IMG/VR virus record: IMGVR_UViG_2563366861_000001
Location: 1-16,051 of that record
Strand: one strand, 5' to 3'
Length of the DNA stretch: 16,051 bases
DNA from: a virus
Taxonomy: Duplodnaviria > Heunggongvirae > Uroviricota > Caudoviricetes
The position numbers were made by a program, and so were the translations under genes. Shown here piece after piece: positions 1-16,051 of this stretch; the first letter of the stretch is position 1, and each line of letters begins with the position of its first letter. The notes under the pieces were generated by a model. It saw nothing but the letters and a program-made list of their open reading frames with translations. It did not search any database and had not been told where the DNA came from.

Positions 1-187
1 GGGAAAGCTGCACGTAATCAGCAAGCGATATACGCAGCGAATTGAGCGGCATAACCTGAATCTGAGGCAGCACCTGGCACGGCTGGGACGGAAGTCGCTG
101 TCGTTCTCAAAATCGGTGGAGCTGCATGACAAAGTCATCGGGCATTATCTGAACATAAAACACTATCAATAAGTTGGAGTCATTACC
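1..187 (+). mobile_element. IS1: IS1 insertion sequence, 3' portion (window starts inside the element); ends with the IS1 terminal inverted repeat ...CACTATCAATAAGTTGGAGTCATTACC at 161-187
   Basis: Bases 1-187 are the exact reverse complement of 15588-15774; encodes the InsB C-terminus and ends in the canonical IS1 terminal repeat (recognised from memory of IS1). Confidence 0.93.
2..172 (+). CDS. insB: IS1 transposase InsB, C-terminal fragment (5' end outside window)
   Basis: Translation of 2-172 gives [56 protein letters not shown] then TAA at 170-172, the same C-terminus as the 15603-15980 ORF on the minus strand. Confidence 0.9.
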
Positions 188-5809: not shown

Positions 5810-6056
5810 TGCCGCCTCCGTGACATGTCACAGAGATTTATATCATTAATTTTGTTTCGTGCCAGCCTTTGGTCACCCAGCATTGTGAGTCACCATTACA
5901 CGGGCATGAATTAACAGGAACTCTCTCGCCGCACTTACCGCAACGTTTTCTGCTGATCGATTTTATACGCCAGCGCACACGTGCATCATCCTGGCGGCTC
6001 AGTAACGCGATGTACTCACCAAACTCGTAAGGCGCATGCCTGAAGCGGCGCGTGGC

Positions 6057-6176
6057 TCAGTTACGATCCAGCATTTCAATTTCCTGAGCATCAAGTACAA
6101 GCTCCAGCTTACGCATACCGGATGATGCTTGCTTGGCTCTCTGATCGACTTTGCGCTCTGCTGATGATTTAGCCAT
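6057..6176 (-). CDS. Hypothetical 39-aa protein (MAKSSAERKVDQRAKQASSGMRKLELVLDAQEIEMLDRN); same frame continues after a single TGA into a 72-codon zinc-ribbon-like segment (5838-6056)
   Basis: ATG at 6174-6176 preceded by an AGGA Shine-Dalgarno; stop TGA at 6057-6059; the downstream frame (…RKRCGKCGERVPVNSCPCNGDSQCW…) stays open to TAA at 5838-5840 with no ATG of its own. Confidence 0.35.
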   Translation of the reverse strand: MAKSSAERKVDQRAKQASSGMRKLELVLDAQEIEMLDRN

Positions 6177-6370
6177 TCTGCTTTTCCTGCATTAGGAGAA
6201 AGACAATCATGGCGGCGCGGATACTTCCGGTATCTTTTTACTCGATATTACCCTTCAATGGCACATACAAGAAGAGAGCCATCAACAGGAGTGAGTGAGG
6301 AATCGACAACCAGCAACGCTTAATTATCTATAGTGTCGTATTTGCTTCATAAAATATGGCGAATAACACA

Positions 6371-6469: not shown

Positions 6470-7084
6470 TTATCTAAAAGTCTTTCCACTTTTAACGTCT
6501 AGGTATATTCTGTTCGACAACGTCATTCCTCCGCAATATGTGAAATAGATGTTTTTCCCCTTATTGCTTGATGCCATCCACCCTCCGATTTCCTTAAAGT
6601 CGCTTTCCGTGCAGACCCCTTCGTTTATTAACTTCCTAGCTGCCGAAGAAAACTCTTTTTTGTATATACGGTAGTCATCAGATCCTTTGATTAAAGTATC
6701 ATCTCCGCTCGCATTTTCAGCAGGATCTGATGGCCTTTCACTGCTAAGATCACTAAGTTTAACCCATTCTGAAAACTTGCCATTGACGATTCCGTTTTTT
6801 CTTGTGCAGGATTTATTACCTTCTTTAATATATTCGCTTTCCCCTCCCACACATGAGGCTGAATATGGCTCAGTTATACGAACCCATTCACCTTTTTTTT
6901 CTAGAAAATCTACGCCTTCCCTGAAAAATAGTTTCCCAGCCACTCCACATTTACTTGAAGGGCAGGTATGTCTTTCCGTTCGATCAACAACAACCCAAAG
7001 TCTTGATTCATTTTTTGCCATTGCCGATGGTATTTGAGATGAGACAATTAACGTAAGCCCTAAAATTAGTATTGATTTTTTCAT
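6470..7084 (-). CDS. Hypothetical secreted, cysteine-rich 204-aa protein (moron); function unknown
   Basis: ATG start with an AAGGA Shine-Dalgarno; N-terminus MKKSILILGLTLIVSSQIPSAMA is a typical Sec signal peptide; 7 Cys in the mature part; low GC; terminator downstream. Confidence 0.65.
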   Translation of the reverse strand: MKKSILILGLTLIVSSQIPSAMAKNESRLWVVVDRTERHTCPSSKCGVAGKLFFREGVDFLEKKGEWVRITEPYSASCVGGESEYIKEGNKSCTRKNGIVNGKFSEWVKLSDLSSERPSDPAENASGDDTLIKGSDDYRIYKKEFSSAARKLINEGVCTESDFKEIGGWMASSNKGKNIYFTYCGGMTLSNRIYLDVKSGKTFR

Positions 7085-7530
7085 TGTAATTTCCTTTTAC
7101 TTTTTACAAAGCGTTTAATCATGGCTGATTATCTTTAAGCGTAGTAACAGCCTTGTGCGAAACATGTTACCAAATCGCCATTTCAGTGTATCCGCAGTTA
7201 GGCTGCCACTTCAAGGATTCCTAATTACATGGTACGTAAGCGTAAAATCCCGTTGGTTGTCGGGTAATAACTCTGATCAAATCTCCCTTGTCTTTTGCTC
7301 TTACGTATGCAGCTCTTGTGTATTCAACCCAGGCCTCCAGTTCAGCAATACGCTTACTTCCATCCGAGATAACACCTTCTACTCACGCTGCTCGTTGAGT
7401 TTTGATTTTTGCTGTCTCCAGCTCAACACGCAGTTTCCTCACCGTTAGCGCAATATCCTCGTTCTCCTGGTCGCGGCGTTTGATGTACTGCTGGTTTCTT
7501 TCCCGTTCATCCAGCAGTGTCAGCACAATC

Positions 7531-7563
7531 GATGGTACGCTGCAGGATAATGTCCGGTGTCAT
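7531..7563 (-). pseudogene. exo: Remnant of lambda exo (first 10 codons MTPDIILQRT only), then unrelated sequence
   Basis: ATG overlaps the bet stop (ATGA) exactly as in lambda; reading diverges from remembered lambda Exo after codon 10 and hits a stop 8 codons later. Confidence 0.6.
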
Positions 7564-8009
7564 GCTGCCACCTTCTGCTCAGTGGCTTTCTGTTTCAGGA
7601 ATCCAAGAGCTTTCACTGCTTCGGCCTGTGTCAGTTCTGACGATGCGCGAATGTCGCGGCGAAATATCTGGGAACAGAGCGGCAATAAGTCGTCATCCCA
7701 TGTTTTGTCCAGGGCAATCAGCAGAGTGTTAATCTCCTGCATGGTTTCATCGTTAACCGGAGTAATGTCGCGTTCCGGCTGACGTTCTGCGGTGTATGCG
7801 GTATTTTCGACAATGCGCTCGGCTTCATCCTTGTCATAGATACCAGCAAATCCGAAGGCCAGACGGGCACACTGAATCATGGCTTTATGCCGTAACATCC
7901 GTTTGGGATGCGACTGCCACGGCCCCGTAATTTCTCTGCCTTCGCGGGTTTTGAATGGTTCGCGGCGGCATTCATCCATCCACTCGGTAACGCAGATCGG
8001 ATGATTACC
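7560..8009 (-). pseudogene. bet: Remnant of lambda bet (Red-beta): C-terminal ~150 codons only, 5' portion deleted
   Basis: Translation NHPICVTEWMDECRREPFKTREGREITGPWQSHPKRMLRHKAMIQCARLAFGFAGIYDKDEAERIVENTAYTAERQPERDITPVNDETMQEINTLLIALDKTWDDDLLPLCSQIFRRDIRASSELTQAEAVKALGFLKQKATEQKVAA matches the remembered C-terminus of lambda Bet; homology stops near 8009. Confidence 0.88.
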
Positions 8010-8165
8010 GGTTCGCTACCAGGGAAGAACGGGAAGGAAAGGTGAGCACGAATCTGATTTTCAAGGAGTGTCGCCAGAGTGCCGCGATGAAGCGGGTGTT
8101 GGCATTTTATCGCGGCAATTTTCAATAGACTATGTACATAAAAATATCATTTTTTTAATACATGT

Positions 8166-8357
8166 CTAATTATTGGACGAAATTGGTTTTTGCTTTGGTT
8201 TAGTTAGCCTAGCAATCAAGCCAGAGGCAATAATGATGATCCAAGCAATTTGATGCAATGCTACTCCAATATAAGAACCTTTATAGATAATAAAGGCATA
8301 GATCGCTAGAAACGAAATAAATATCCATAACGAAAGTTGATAAATTTTGGCGCGCAT
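8166..8357 (-). CDS. Possible small membrane protein (63 aa from ATG at 8357; two predicted transmembrane helices)
   Basis: Hydrophobic ORF MRAKIYQLSLWIFISFLAIYAFIIYKGSYIGVALHQIAWIIIIASGLIARLTKPKQ...; weak ribosome-binding site; the ORF-track start at 8372 is a TTG. Confidence 0.3.
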   Translation of the reverse strand: MRAKIYQLSLWIFISFLAIYAFIIYKGSYIGVALHQIAWIIIIASGLIARLTKPKQKPISSNN

Positions 8358-8613
8358 ATTTAATCCAATCAATCAGAAAGACGAGTAATCATAGAGGTAC
8401 TATCACCCGGGTAACTATTGCTATTATGAACGGATAGGATAGAGGCTTCAATAACATATGCATCAAGTATGATGGAATATGTAGGTGAAAATGACTTGTG
8501 TCAAATTTGTGGAAATGAGTACCATGTTTCTCTGAAATTGATGTCGTTAATGGCTAGTGATAGTGAACTTTTTTACTTTATAATTCCTTTGGTTATAACA
8601 ATAAGGTAAATTT

Positions 8614-9174
8614 ATGAAGAAGATAATATTATTAGCCATGATTATTGGTTCTTTAACAGGTTGCGCTAGTGTGCCACCATTGAATTTTTCAACACCTAAC
8701 GTGGGAGTTAGCCAGAAAAAAATAGATGCTGAAATTAAGTCATTAACGGTATCACTTGCTCGTCCAGATGAGCAGAAAGGGGATATCACTGCTGGTATGG
8801 AGGCTATAACTCCAATTTGGCGTGAATCTTTGCAGGAAGCACTCGACCGAATGACTATTTTTCGTGATAGTTCACCAAATACGGTTAGCTTAAATGTTAA
8901 AGTGTTGGCTCTTGACGTTCCTGCTTTTGGTGTTTCAATGACAACTAAAGCAATTGCAAGGTATGAAATAATCAACCGTGCGAATGGTGATATTATATAT
9001 ACGCAGGATATTGAGTCTACCGGTACTGTTCCAGCCAGTTACGCATTCTACGGTATTGTTCGAGCACGCGAATCTGTTAATCGCGCGGTGCAAAACAACA
9101 TAACGCAGTTCTTGCAAGCATTAGAAAGTGTTGATCTTTCTCGTCCAATGTTTCCTGTTAGGGTAGCTAAATGA
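8614..9174 (+). CDS. Putative lipoprotein, 186 aa (signal peptide plus lipobox LTGC); possibly YajG-like, function unknown
   Basis: MKKIILLAMIIGSLTGCAS… lipoprotein signal; ATG with upstream AAGG; stop overlaps the next gene's start (ATGA); low GC. Confidence 0.7.
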   Translation: MKKIILLAMIIGSLTGCASVPPLNFSTPNVGVSQKKIDAEIKSLTVSLARPDEQKGDITAGMEAITPIWRESLQEALDRMTIFRDSSPNTVSLNVKVLALDVPAFGVSMTTKAIARYEIINRANGDIIYTQDIESTGTVPASYAFYGIVRARESVNRAVQNNITQFLQALESVDLSRPMFPVRVAK

Positions 9175-9623
9175 AGCGATTATTCGTAATTGCTCCACTC
9201 TTAGTGTTGGTTGGATGCGCACAAAATATATCGCCAAATAGTTATTCTGTTGGCTCTGTGGGCATGGTTAATCGAACTATCGCTGGTACAGTTATTAGTG
9301 CTAGGGGGGTTGATATCAGTGGGACTTCCGCGTTAGGCGGGACTGCTGGGGCTGCCGTGGGGGCAACCGCTGGTTCTGCGCTTGGTGGGGGAGTTCGTTC
9401 TAATATCGTTGGTGCCGTTGGTGGTGCAGTCATTGGTGGTATTGCCGGGGCAGCAATCGAATCTTCAGCAACAAAACAAACAGGCATGGAATATGTTGTC
9501 GAAACTGAGAATGGGAATTTAATGACCATTGTTCAAGGCAAAGATCCGTTATTTACTCAAGGAAGTAAGGTCCTTGTTTTATACGGAAACCCTTCTCGCA
9601 TAATAACAGACCCGCGTCACTAA
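9171..9623 (+). CDS. SlyB-like outer-membrane lipoprotein with a glycine-zipper domain, 150 aa
   Basis: Lipobox LLVLVGCA, then the Gly-rich segment GTSALGGTAGAAVGATAGSALGGGVRSNIVGAVGGAVIGGIAGAAIE and a C-terminal region resembling SlyB/Pcp (family assignment from memory). Confidence 0.7.
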   Translation: MKRLFVIAPLLVLVGCAQNISPNSYSVGSVGMVNRTIAGTVISARGVDISGTSALGGTAGAAVGATAGSALGGGVRSNIVGAVGGAVIGGIAGAAIESSATKQTGMEYVVETENGNLMTIVQGKDPLFTQGSKVLVLYGNPSRIITDPRH

Positions 9624-9663
9624 CATACCTTTTGATTTTGTAAAATCAATTCGTAATAATAAA

Positions 9664-9700
9664 GTCATCGGAGCTTGAACAACTCCGGTGACTTCTGCGC
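9664..9700 (+). terminator. Candidate terminator after the lipoprotein operon (10-bp stem GTCATCGGAG / CTCCGGTGAC with one G-U, 9-nt loop, weak T-rich tail)
   Basis: Inverted repeat at 9664-9673 / 9683-9692 followed by TTCTGCGC. Confidence 0.3.
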
Positions 9701-9813
9701 TAAACGGGGACGTTTATGCGCACATACAATCCAAACTCTCTTCTCCCTTCACAGATGCAGAAATGCACCTGCGATTTTTTGCATCCAGCGTCTGACCTCT
9801 GCGGAGGTGAAGC

Positions 9814-10269
9814 GTGAACCTACCACAAGATGGCATCAAACTGCATCGCGGTAACTTCACCGCTATCGGCCAGCAGATCCAGCCTTATCTGGAGGACGGA
9901 AAATGCTTTCGCATGGTGCTTAAACCGTGGCGTGAGAAACGCAGTCTTTCCCAGAATGCACTCAGCCACATGTGGTACAGCGAAATCAGTGAATACCTCA
10001 TCAGCAGGGGGAAATCGTTCGCTACCGCAGCATGGGTAAAAGATGCTCTCAAACACACATACCTCGGTTATGAAACCAAGGACCTGGTTGATGTCGTAAC
10101 CGGCGAAATCACTACTATCCAGTCGTTACGCCATACCTCCGATCTTGATACCGGAGAGATGTATATCTTCCTGTGTAAGGTTGAAGCCTGGGCGGTGAAT
10201 ATTGGCTGCCACCTGACTATTCCGCAGAGCTGCGAGTTCCAGCAGCTCCGCGACAAACAGGAGGCGTAA
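9814..10269 (+). CDS. ybcN: Nin-region protein YbcN-like, 151 aa, GTG start
   Basis: [58 protein letters not shown]… recognised as the DLP12-type YbcN preceding ninE; GGAGG Shine-Dalgarno upstream. Confidence 0.8.
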
Positions 10270-10439
10270 TGGCTACACCGCTTATTCGTGTCATGAACGG
10301 ACACATCTACAGAGTACCAAATCGTCGTAAGCGTAAACCGGAGCTGAAGCCTTCCGAAATACCAACACTGCTCGGATATACCGCCAGCCTGGTTGATAAA
10401 AAATGGTTGCGACTGGCAGCAAGGAGGAGTCATGGCTGA
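10269..10439 (+). CDS. ninE: NinE, 56 aa
   Basis: Hand translation [56 protein letters not shown]; start overlaps the ybcN stop (TAATG); conserved lambdoid nin-region order. Confidence 0.8.
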   Translation: MATPLIRVMNGHIYRVPNRRKRKPELKPSEIPTLLGYTASLVDKKWLRLAARRSHG

Positions 10440-10722
10440 TTTGAGAAAAGCAGCGCGTGGTCGGGAATGCCAGGTAAGAATCCCTGGCGTATGTAATGGC
10501 AACCCTGAAACGTCTGTACTGGCACATATCCGGCTGACTGGATTGTGCGGCACCGGTACGAAACCGCCAGACCTGATTGCCACCATTGCATGTTCTGCCT
10601 GCCACGACGAAATCGACCGCCGCACACATTTTGTCGATGCTGCATATGCAAAAGAATGCGCGCTGGAAGGTATGGCGAGAACACAGGTTATCTGGCTGAA
10701 AGAGGGGGTTATTAAGGCGTGA
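10432..10722 (+). CDS. ybcO: YbcO-like (DUF1364) putative nuclease, 96 aa from the ATG at 10432
   Basis: [64 protein letters not shown]…; AGGAGG Shine-Dalgarno just upstream; overlaps the ninE stop. Confidence 0.85.
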
Positions 10723-11081
10723 ATACCTACAGCATCACATTACCCTGGCCTCCGAGCAATAATCGCTATTACCGCCATAATCGCGGGCGCACACACATCA
10801 GCGCAGAAGGGCAGGCATACCGCGATAACGTCACCCGAATCATTAAAAACGCAATGCTGGATATCGGCCTGGCTATGCCAGTGAAAATCCGTATTGAGTG
10901 CCACATGCCGGATCGCCGTCGCCGTGACCTGGATAATCTGCAAAAAGCCGCTTTTGACGCACTCACCAAAGCAGGTTTCTGGCTGGATGATGCTCAGGTC
11001 GTTGATTACCGCGTTGTGAAGATGCCTGTTACCAAAGGTGGGAGGCTGGAACTGACCATCACCGAAATGGGGAATGAATGA
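10719..11081 (+). CDS. rusA: RusA Holliday-junction resolvase, 120 aa
   Basis: [37 protein letters not shown]…[12 protein letters not shown] matches remembered E. coli RusA almost residue for residue. Confidence 0.93.
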
Positions 11082-11218
11082 TGTTTGAGTTTAATATGGC
11101 AGAACTTCTTCGCCACCGCTGGATGCGCCTGCGCTTATATCGTTTCCCCAGTTCTGTTTTGACCGATTACCGAATACTGAGGAATTACGCCAAAACCCTG
11201 ACAGGAGCAGGAGTATGA
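11078..11218 (+). CDS. ylcG: Small 46-aa protein YlcG-like, between rusA and Q
   Basis: Hand translation [46 protein letters not shown]; overlaps the rusA stop; position matches ylcG of DLP12 (sequence identity from memory, unverified). Confidence 0.55.
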
Positions 11219-11303
11219 AGTCAGAGATAACAATCAACTAATACTGTTTTATTGATTTTTGCTTGTAATTGGCGTTCTGGTCTGATTTTTGTGGAGTAAG
11301 TTG

Positions 11304-11687
11304 ATGCGTGATATTCAGATGGTTCTTGAGCGTTGGGGAGCGTGGGCGGCTAATAATCATGAAGATGTGACCTGGTCGTCCATTGCCGCCGGTTTTAAGG
11401 GATTAATTACTTCAAAAGTAAAATCTCGCCCGCAATGTTGTGACGATGACGCGATGATCATTTGCGGGTGCATGGCCCGTCTGAAAAAGAACAACAGCGA
11501 TTTGCACGATTTATTAGTAGATTATTATGTAGTCGGTATGACATTCATGTCACTGGCAGGTAAGCATTGCTGCTCTGATGGTTATATCGGGAAAAGGTTA
11601 CAGAAGGCTGAGGGTATAATTGAAGGGATGTTAATGGCATTAGATATCCGGTTAGAGATGGATATCGTTGTTAATAACTCTAATTAA
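11304..11687 (+). CDS. Late-gene antiterminator Q (phage 82/DLP12 QuuD-type), 127 aa from the ATG at 11304
   Basis: [60 protein letters not shown]… with Cys-rich zinc-binding motifs; sits after the nin genes and before the lysis cassette. Confidence 0.85.
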
Positions 11688-11702
11688 TATGCCAATTGTT
11701 TA

Positions 11703-11738
11703 CTAAAAATTATTAAAAATGGGGCGTTGAGACGCCCC
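11703..11738 (-). terminator. Candidate intrinsic terminator for the porin gene (stem GGGGCG / CGCCCC, then ATTTTTAATAATTTTT on the minus strand)
   Basis: Inverted repeat 11721-11726 / 11733-11738 with a U-rich run on the minus-strand 3' side. Confidence 0.4.
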
Positions 11739-11826
11739 CAAAAATAAAGGGTAATATATAACAGAAGGTTTATATAGTTAGAAGCAAGGTTGTGCTCCTA
11801 AAGGAAGTGGCTTGAGGGAGCCACTT

Positions 11827-11866
11827 ATATGTTGGGGAGGCAAAGCCTCCCGCAACATATCTTTTA
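11827..11866 (+). terminator. Candidate hairpin terminator downstream of Q (stem ATATGTTGGGGAGGC / GCCTCCCGCAACATAT followed by CTTTT)
   Basis: Long imperfect inverted repeat 11827-11860 followed by a short T-run; lies between convergent Q and the porin gene. Confidence 0.35.
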
Positions 11867-11875
11867 GTAATCAAA

Positions 11876-12958
11876 TTAGAACTGGTAAACCATACCTACA
11901 GCAACGATATCATCGGTAGCAACGCCAGATGCTTTCGTGAAATCGCTCTTATCAATCAGGTTGATTTTGTAATCAACAAAAGTGGACATATTTTTGTTGA
12001 AGTAATAGGTTGCACCTACATCAATATATTCAACCAGGTCCTGATCACCCCACGCACCCAAGTCTTTTCCTTTAGATTGCAGGTAAGCAACGGACGGACG
12101 CAGACCGAAGTCGAACTGATATTGTGCAACTACTTCGAAGTTTTGTGCTTTGTTGGCAATATGGTTATTACCAAAAACAGTCATGTTCTGGGTTTCAGAA
12201 TAGGTGGTAGCCAGATAGATGTTGTTCGCATCATATTTCAGACCAGCTGCCCATACTTCAGCATTTTGACCAGATGCATTCAGGCTGTTGTTACCGTAGA
12301 TAACCTGATTATTAGTGCGGTCAGATTTAGCATAGGTTGCACCTACACCGAATCCTTCATACTCATAAGTAGTGGAGAAACCGAAACCATCACCATTAGC
12401 TTCAGTTACGTCAGTGCGGTCATTTTTACCCTGATACTGAGCAGCAAAGTTCAGACCATCAACCAGACCAAAGAAGTCATTGTTACGATAAGTTGCAACA
12501 CCTGTGGTGCGACCAGTCATGAATACATCTGTTTGGGTCCAGGTATCGCCACCGAATTCTGGCAGAACGTCGGTCCATGCACCAATATCGTATGCTACAC
12601 CGTAGTTACGGCCATAATCGATGGAGCCGTAGTCACCGAATTTCAGGCCAGCGAAGGCAAGACGGGTTTTATCTTTGGAGGAACCTTGAGATTCAGCGCG
12701 GTTGCCTTTGAATTCATATTCCCACTGACCGAAACCAGTCAGTTGATCGTTGATTTGGGTTTCACCTTTGAAGCCAAGACGGGCATAAGTAGTATCACCA
12801 TCATCTGCATCATTAGAGGAGAAGTAGTGCTTAGCATTAACTTTCCCGTACAGATCCAGCTTGTTACTGTCTTTATTATAAATTTCAGCTGCCTGAGCAG
12901 ACATCGCCATCAGTACTGATGCAGCTACAGCAGAAATTGCCACTGTTAATTTTTTCAT
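11876..12958 (-). CDS. nmpC: Phage-borne OmpC-family general porin (NmpC/Lc type), 360-aa precursor, apparently full length; start taken at [11 protein letters not shown]…
   Basis: Signal peptide [23 protein letters not shown], mature N-terminus [17 protein letters not shown]…, C-terminal …VAVGMVYQF with terminal Phe typical of porins; located between Q and the holin as in DLP12 and PA-2. Confidence 0.9.
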
Positions 12959-13384
12959 CGTGAGCCCTTTTTTTGAACTATTATTAAAAAATGATGTCAC
13001 TGCGCGATAAATATTCATCTAATCAATGTGATTATTTCAAGATGTAAGTTTTGGTTTCTCATTTGATTTGTGAAGTAGATCTCTATTTTTATCTGAACTT
13101 TTTCTATCGAATCCTATTCATGGCTCTTGGCTGAATAAAAATAAATCTATTAGCCAATTTATATTAATGGCTGTTATTTATAAGTGCTCTATAATTTGAA
13201 GATTCAATTTAAACCAGCTAAAAATAACGCTGGAAATTATTTGTTGGTTATTTGTTGAGATTTGCTTATGTATTTGTAGTGGTGTTTTCAATACTCGGTA
13301 GCATTCTCGCAAATATCATTTAGTGGTTTACGTACGTAAAAAATTGGTTATGCTGTTAAGAGTGGTTACTTCGTCACACAGCTT

Positions 13385-15587: not shown

Positions 15588-16051
15588 GGTAATGACTCCA
15601 ACTTATTGATAGTGTTTTATGTTCAGATAATGCCCGATGACTTTGTCATGCAGCTCCACCGATTTTGAGAACGACAGCGACTTCCGTCCCAGCCGTGCCA
15701 GGTGCTGCCTCAGATTCAGGTTATGCCGCTCAATTCGCTGCGTATATCGCTTGCTGATTACGTGCAGCTTTCCCTTCAGGCGGGATTCATACAGCGGCCA
15801 GCCATCCGTCATCCATATCACCACGTCAAAGGGTGACAGCAGGCTCATAAGACGCCCCAGCGTCGCCATAGTGCGTTCACCGAATACGTGCGCAACAACC
15901 GTCTTCCGGAGCCTGTCATACGCGTAAAACAGCCAGCGCTGGCGCGATTTAGCCCCGACGTATCCCCACTGTTCGTCCATTTCCGCGCAGACGATGACGT
16001 CACTGCCCGGCTGTATGCGCGAGGTTACCGACTGCGGCCTGAGTTTTTTAA
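15588..16051 (-). mobile_element. IS1: IS1 insertion sequence, partial (runs off the window end), inverted relative to the IS1 at 1-187
   Basis: Begins with the IS1 terminal repeat GGTAATGACTCCAACTTATTGATAGTG at 15588; 15588-15774 is the exact reverse complement of 1-187. Confidence 0.95.
15603..16049 (-). CDS. insB: IS1 transposase InsB reading frame (5' end outside window)
   Basis: …[68 protein letters not shown]…HYLNIKHYQ, recognised as IS1 InsB. Confidence 0.92.

Follow-up and report, generated by a model that had tools for sequence, protein, structure and literature searches.

The closest described relatives of the locus analysed here are phage lambda, phage Chlobot (PP925838), the PEC1009 prophage and the prophage DLP12 of Escherichia coli K-12. 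Chlobot carries a complete N-gam-bet-exo...ea22...xis-int arm at 98% identity, and the PEC1009 prophage has a complete exo-to-int arm that holds a complete exo, orf60a (DUF1317), orf63 (DUF1382), a small ORF, a TraR/DksA-like gene and the start of ea22. [quoted passage not shown] DLP12 (intD-xisD-exoD'-peaD'-renD) has lost its immunity and replication block by deletion, as has the locus studied here.

We analysed a stretch of 16,051 nucleotides from IMG/VR (record IMGVR_UViG_2563366861_000001; henceforth the window) with a focus on its remnants of ren, bet, exo and ea22. We found that this region is very probably non-functional debris of a defective lambdoid prophage, which two microhomology-mediated deletions would have produced. 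This is ordinary prophage decay of a kind already known, and RefSeq marks ren', bet' and ea22' as pseudogenes; what the comparison adds is a base-level account of the steps by which a single defective prophage came to lack immunity, replication and Red functions.

Prophage context of the window

The gene order in the window is ybhJ - ybhC | int - xis ..., followed by a DLP12-like nin/Q/porin/lysis/bor region. With ybhC followed by int and xis, a lambdoid gene order and a known attachment site, the window is a lambdoid prophage of E. coli, integrated at the lambda attachment site and defective. The repressor and its operators, N, O, P and ori are all gone, and their absence is accounted for by the first of two junctions described below (J1). 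By tblastn, the only lambda early proteins detectable in the window were Int and Xis (98.6% identical to their lambda counterparts), Ea22 (residues 34-102), Bet (114-261) and Ren (54-92); lambda Gam, Kil, CIII, N, CI, Cro, CII, O and P had no match anywhere in it, and an Rfam scan of the whole window at gathering thresholds returned 0 families. Among 5,426 complete E. coli genomes, a few dozen carried near-identical copies of the prophage (99.9%).

Two copies of IS1 flank the window (1-187 and 15588-16051). They are identical over 187 nt and inverted relative to each other, with the same end pointing inward, and the insertions truncate ybhJ (674 of ~753 codons left) and ybcV. None of the complete E. 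coli genomes in the collection carried both insertions.

Several further observations concern neighbouring genes. On the minus strand, 5999-6316 corresponds to a UmuD-like gene of phage Chlobot at 90% identity, with an in-frame stop (..CAIEG*YRVK..), and RefSeq labels the interval ‘DNA repair protein, incomplete’ together with ‘hypothetical protein, internal stop’. Between this remnant and ea22' lies a 204-aa ORF (6470-7084, minus strand) with a signal-peptide-like N-terminus and no Pfam match, which is kept in Chlobot and in all sibling prophages and may be a cargo (‘moron’) gene. The stretch between ren' and ybcN holds a small hydrophobic ORF of 68 aa (8166-8372, minus strand) and an overlapping pair of lipoprotein-like ORFs (8614-9174 and 9171-9623, plus strand), the second of which gave weak glycine-zipper matches; together these ORFs (8166-9623) occupy the place of emrE-ybcK in K-12 DLP12, and none of the three could be assigned to a family with confidence. 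The porin ORF (11876-13018, minus strand) is 380 aa long when read from its upstream ATG, and RefSeq gives 360 aa for this ‘porin OmpC’, which occupies the NmpC-like position of DLP12; the mechanical ORF list has probably picked a wrong start codon, which would account for the 20 additional codons.

Remnants of bet and exo

The bet' pseudogene (7560..8003, minus strand) encodes residues 115-261 of lambda Bet (Red-beta), followed by a TGA stop at 7562-7560. No stop interrupts its frame from 8015 on, and its earliest ATG (7979) corresponds to Bet M123. Compared with lambda, the minus strand from 8012 to 7534 aligned to lambda 32476..31999 at 97.1% over 479 nt, and the bet/exo piece matched hundreds of lambdoid phages at 98-99%. 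At the protein level, tblastn recovered Bet residues 114-261 of 261 at 99.3%, with a single substitution relative to lambda, and phmmer comparisons with Bet chains in the PDB gave E-values of 1e-46 and 1e-40. The similarity is far above chance, in agreement with the first-pass annotation, which had read the region as a relic of the lambda Red module comprising 10 codons of exo and the C-terminal half of bet (here, the C-terminal 56%).

Homology places bet' in the RecT/Red-beta family: the Pfam RecT profile (PF03837) matched at E = 1.3e-10 and 41.6 bits (cut-off 24), a partial match over profile positions 128-195 of 198. Missing are residues 1-114 of the N-terminal annealing domain. The match to PDB 7UJL is limited to chain residues 115-178, so that more than half of its N-terminal domain (~1-177) is absent, and the C-terminal domain seen in PDB 6M9K/8TFU is kept. 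A 139-codon ORF (7979-7560), which counts against the reading as debris, is still open and holds the complete Bet C-terminal domain, an independently folding domain that binds Exo and SSB in PDB entries. In identical genomes RefSeq describes bet' as ‘recombinase RecT, incomplete, missing N-terminus’.

The exo stub (7534..7563, minus strand) consists of the first 30 nt of the lambda exonuclease gene (MTPDIILQRT) and, up to nt 30, does not differ from the start of exo in lambda, PEC1009 or Chlobot. Its ATG overlaps the bet stop in the sequence ATGA at 7563-7560, an overlap that the annotation had described as exactly preserved and that we found intact. Only codons 1-10 of the 226-aa exonuclease remain: homology stops at 7534, directly after MTPDIILQRT as the annotation had stated, and tblastn gave no match to Exo in the window. 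Read across the junction that ends it (J2), the stub encodes an 18-aa peptide, MTPDIILQRTIDCADTAG*. Upstream of bet', in place of gam and pL, lies antisense ren, with Gam, N and CI unmatched in the window. Because the annealing domain of Bet is cut and both Exo and Gam are gone, Red recombination would be impossible from these remnants; bet' itself would be unable to anneal DNA. A scan of 7000-8700 for promoters and terminators gave counts at shuffle expectation (6 promoter-like sites vs 4.4 expected) and therefore lends no support to expression of bet'.

A frameshifted ea22 remnant beyond the exo stub

Beyond the exo stub, the window is collinear with lambda ea22 from 7536. The proximal piece of ea22' (7383..7535, minus strand) corresponds to a central coiled-coil segment, residues ~34-77 of lambda Ea22, and its frame, ...LLDERERNQQYIKRRDQENEDIALTVRKLRVELETAKIKTQRAA, stops at a TGA at 7385-7383. 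Nucleotide identity to lambda ea22 (30297-30094) is 92.7%. The Ead_Ea22 profile (PF13935) matched this fragment at E = 4.6e-13 and 50.4 bits (cut-off 27) over positions 66-110 of 139, so that what had been described as a coiled-coil fragment of unnamed origin belongs, by profile, to the Ead/Ea22-like family; a complete ORF with start, coiled coil and C-terminal domain is absent.

The stop arises from a +1 frameshift, i.e., an extra A that turns the A4 run of lambda into an A5 run at 7410-7406, after which the proximal piece ends KIKTQRAA*. A 4-nt deletion relative to lambda, between 7380 and 7379 and 30 nt further on, brings back the original frame. The distal piece (7221..7382, minus strand) reads VEGVISDGSKRIAELE..., is lambda-like to 7336 and then continues into a non-lambda tail that ends at a TAG at 7223-7221. 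It had no Pfam match and is 98.9% identical to Chlobot 15789-16240. RefSeq annotates ea22' as ‘ead/Ea22-like family protein, frameshifted, incomplete’.

Given that phage Chlobot carries the same short ea22 allele ending KIKTQRAA*, the truncation is older than the decay of the prophage, and the stop at 7385-7383 marks the true C-terminus of a truncated allele that is in circulation. The first-pass annotation saw here the start-less C-terminus of a coiled-coil protein; relative to lambda Ea22 the frame is an internal piece. J2 accounts for no more of the damage to ea22 than the loss of codons 1-33.

Two deletion junctions mapped to the base

The same annotation had placed deletion junctions at about 7531 and 8009. 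Pairwise alignment to the lambda exo-bet region and its relatives mapped them to 7534-7536 and 8004-8008, i.e., within 3-5 nt, and the comparisons show both, at the level of sequence, to be simple deletions with 3-5 nt of microhomology. At each junction the window is collinear with lambda on either side.

J1 (8004..8008, minus strand) joins antisense ren to bet at the 5-nt microhomology GTAAT. In the pairwise alignment its parents read ..CCGGTAAT|ACACC in antisense ren and ..ACCGTAAT|CATCC in bet or, with alternative flank extents, ..AACCGGTAAT|ACACC and ..GGACCGTAAT|CATCC. The partner of bet at this junction, which the annotation had left unnamed, is ren, whose 3' end lies there on the other strand: J1 sets bet' head-to-head against the final 40 codons of a gene for a lambda Ren-like protein (YRFATREEREGKVSTNLIFKECRQSAAMKRVLAFYRGNFQ*; ren', 8006..8128, plus strand), whose N-terminal ~57 codons are deleted. 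Similarity of ren' to lambda ren (40440-40548) is 90.9% by blastn, tblastn aligned Ren 54-92 at 85%, and RefSeq labels it in identical genomes ‘protein ren, incomplete, missing N-terminus’. In lambda units the deletion covers 32474-40453 (~7,980 bp), which removes bet codons 1-113, gam, kil, cIII, ea10, ral, sieB, N, pL, rexAB, cI, pR, cro, cII, O/ori, P and ren codons 1-57.

J2 (7534..7536, minus strand) joins exo to ea22 at the 3-nt microhomology ACC, with parents ..GCGTACC|GGGATC (exo) and ..GTAACACC|ATCGAT (ea22). Relative to PEC1009 (positions 7868-9570 of that sequence, L006) and to phage Chlobot it is a deletion of 1,703 bp, which removed exo codons 11-226, orf60a (DUF1317), orf63 (DUF1382), a small ORF, a TraR/DksA-like zinc-finger gene and ea22 codons 1-33. 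The window is 99.96% identical to PEC1009 on both sides of J2. Beyond the junction it is collinear with the PEC1009 prophage at 99.98% and, from 7536 down to 3737, with Chlobot at 98.1%.

We found J1 in 23 of the 5,426 complete E. coli genomes: a 102-nt probe across the junction was complete in 17 of them, and 6 more keep J1 with most of bet' lost. The J2 probe was found as a single piece in 6 of the 5,426. As J2 is narrower among genomes (6 vs 23), it would be the later of the two. The comparisons show a deletion, probably the first, that ran from inside bet to inside ren, took the whole immunity, N/pL-pR and replication block, locked the prophage in place and killed Bet; it probably left the prophage non-inducible and unable to replicate. 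They likewise show a deletion of 1.7 kb, probably later, that joined exo codon 10 to ea22 codon 34. Both may have arisen by RecA-independent illegitimate recombination, i.e., replication slippage or microhomology-mediated end joining. Four remnants survive, namely ren codons ~58-96, bet codons 115-261, exo codons 1-10 and an ea22 with a frameshift, and none of them has its native promoter.

Sibling alleles of one young element

The distribution of the deletions is nested, in that sibling alleles have J1 in common and differ in their second deletions. We took PEC1009, which has J1 only, as the reference (allele A, L006). Allele B (FORC_081 and 3 others) lacks L006 7866-9129 (1,264 bp; microhomology TA), and allele C (the window and 6 genomes; JNQH497 is one carrier strain) lacks 7868-9570 (1,703 bp; ACC). 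Allele D (FDAARGOS_1248 and 5 others) lacks 7417-7869 (453 bp; TACCG in an imperfect 13-nt match) and fuses bet' in frame to exo, and allele E (VG48B2) lacks 8573-12251 (3,679 bp; TA) and fuses orf60a to int. No more than 5 SNPs separate the copies over ~13 kb, and the element is therefore young. The five sibling alleles are of modest value as a clean natural series of deletions with 2-5 nt of microhomology in one nearly identical element.

A possible recurrent breakpoint near the start of exo

Alleles B, C and D each have one endpoint within exo nt 24-32. More broadly, at least six deletions with different partners end at exo nt 27-30 (GCG-TACC-GGG), in both attB-lambda and DLP12-type prophage families. 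Where the left side is kept, exo nt 30 is joined to ea22 in the window allele (ACC), nt 28 to sequence lying upstream of the traR-like gene in the FORC_081 allele (TA), and nt 30 to the interior of intD in a DLP12-type contig from IMG/VR (TACC). Where the right side is kept, exo begins at nt 27 after ren'/bet' (TACCG), at nt 29 after antisense O in DLP12-type prophages (TA), and at nt 27 after a further distinct partner in IMG/VR. The endpoints lie at 7534-7537 in the window, 3864-3866 in L004, 6065-6073 in L007, ~1000-1004 in L010, ~743-745 in L012 and ~806-810 in L014. Contig L010 (IMGVR_UViG_2648501186_000018), which is DLP12-type, has beside its exo30|intD junction a further deletion at reverse-complement ~7002-7004, from gam to the C-terminal part of bet, and is another case of serial decay of the Red region.

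A targeted scan of IMG/VR, in which one non-native base had to be followed by 29 native nt of exo, returned 8 contigs at exo nt 26 (3 distinct partners and 1 SNP variant), and control scans at exo nt 150, 330 and 510 returned 0 matches each. In unbiased anchor samples, which are small (120 contigs each, left and right), the left anchor gave one true junction, at nt 256, and none at nt 28-30, and the right anchor gave junctions at nt 27, nt ~62-67 and nt 254. The anchor samples are thus only partly supportive, and the enrichment of endpoints at exo nt 27-30 is suggestive, not proven. GTTA and GTAA each occurred at 6 of 11 junction parent sites (including sites in lambda, L006 and K-12 DLP12, L019 ~2362-2377) vs a background of ~6%, but the two parents of one junction are not independent, which makes the significance uncertain. 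The K-12 exoD'/peaD' junction (..ACTCGTA|CCTCCC) is also among the junctions that tend to GT(T)A(A) microhomologies.

That exo nt 27-30 (5'-CTGCAGCG TACC GGGATCGA) form a sequence-specific hotspot for illegitimate recombination in lambdoid prophages is a tentative proposal, and on balance we doubt it. If true, it would imply a site-preferring break or template-switch mechanism instead of random decay, with a topoisomerase, or a TTAC-type single-strand nuclease or transposase, as candidate agents. We found no report of such a hotspot in the literature on cryptic prophages, exonuclease and microhomology. A hairpin at the breakpoint was rejected, as both strands of L006 7820-7900 and 7838-7875 folded as unstructured (z from -0.4 to +0.65). 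Cuts at PstI (CTGCAG), CCGG/CCSGG and MutH/GATC sites do not fit the breakpoints, nor do Chi-like sequences, secondary att sites of Int, IS-mediated adjacent deletion or CRISPR self-targeting. The recurrent breakpoint, if confirmed, is the sole part of this locus able to teach something new about prophage decay.

Alternative origins of the window allele and its remnants

The window allele could have been derived from a FORC_081-type allele, in which exo nt 28 is followed by sequence from upstream of the TraR/DksA-like gene, by a second, nested deletion of 439 bp, and not directly from an ancestor with full-length exo. Taking 438-439 bp out of the FORC_081 locus, with 1 nt (A) of overlap, does give the window sequence, and the left breakpoints of the two alleles are only 2 nt apart; clearly independent deletions use the same exo site, however, so the coincidence of endpoints is not evidence of nesting. 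Moreover, the window keeps exo nt 29-30 (CC), which FORC_081 lacks and which chance would re-create in 1 of 16 cases, a direct deletion has the better microhomology (ACC), and a SNP phylogeny of the two alleles (15 variable sites in ~13 kb) is star-like, with no derived SNP common to B and C. We thus consider a nested origin unlikely.

Two other readings would change the meaning of the remnants themselves. The Bet fragment M123-A261 might be a domesticated gene, e.g., a decoy to which Exo or SSB of infecting lambdoid phages would bind, and an intact 139-codon ORF with the whole C-terminal domain, one amino-acid change from lambda and persistence in 17 genomes would all suit such a role. Yet a native promoter is absent and promoter-like sites are not in excess, the FDAARGOS_1248-type sibling allele (6 genomes) has deleted nearly all of bet', PGAP calls bet' a pseudogene, and the high identity is explained by recent origin, all of which makes domestication highly improbable. 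Nor do we give appreciable weight to the junctions being mosaic boundaries, i.e., products of module exchange between different phages. Lambdoid genomes are mosaic and the distal tail of ea22 is non-lambda, but single relatives that hold the intervening DNA (PEC1009, Chlobot and lambda) carry the two flanks of each junction collinearly, with order and orientation unchanged, and both flanks are 99.96-100% identical to the same relative, PEC1009. Both junctions also cut through reading frames, and a simple deletion spanning the divergent pL/pR region would be expected to leave ren and bet head-to-head, as they are here. The reading of the region as debris left by two deletions, with Ea22 and ren as refinements, is supported, as is the interpretation from which this analysis started.

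Comparison with lambda, Chlobot, PEC1009 and DLP12

Over bet codons 113-261 and exo codons 1-10 the window is 97% identical in nucleotides to the lambda Red module, and the ATGA overlap is common to both. The exo-xis region agrees with lambda in gene order and strand, and in the ea22 coiled-coil segment at the identity given above. Unlike lambda, the window lacks Bet residues 1-114, Exo residues 11-226, Gam and orf60a/orf63/orf61, and its ea22 is without codons 1-33, frameshifted and provided with a different C-terminal tail. Chlobot matches the window at 98% both across bet and from ea22 to attP and shares its truncated ea22 allele, but carries neither deletion. The attB-lambda prophage of E. 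coli PEC1009 is 99.96% identical and shares J1, but is without J2 and has kept exo, orf60a, orf63, the TraR/DksA-like gene and the ea22 start.

The late region of the window bears DLP12 gene names (ybcN, ninE, ybcO, rusA, ylcG, quuD, porin, essD, rrrD, rzpD, bor and ybcV), and in both prophages a Red-gene fragment is fused head-to-head to a replication or ren fragment. They differ in integration site (attB-lambda in the window, argU for K-12 DLP12) and in integrase (lambda-type vs IntD). The junctions differ as well: K-12 DLP12 joins antisense P to exo nt ~402 and keeps the exo C-terminus, whereas the window joins antisense ren to bet codon 114 and keeps only an N-terminal stub of exo.
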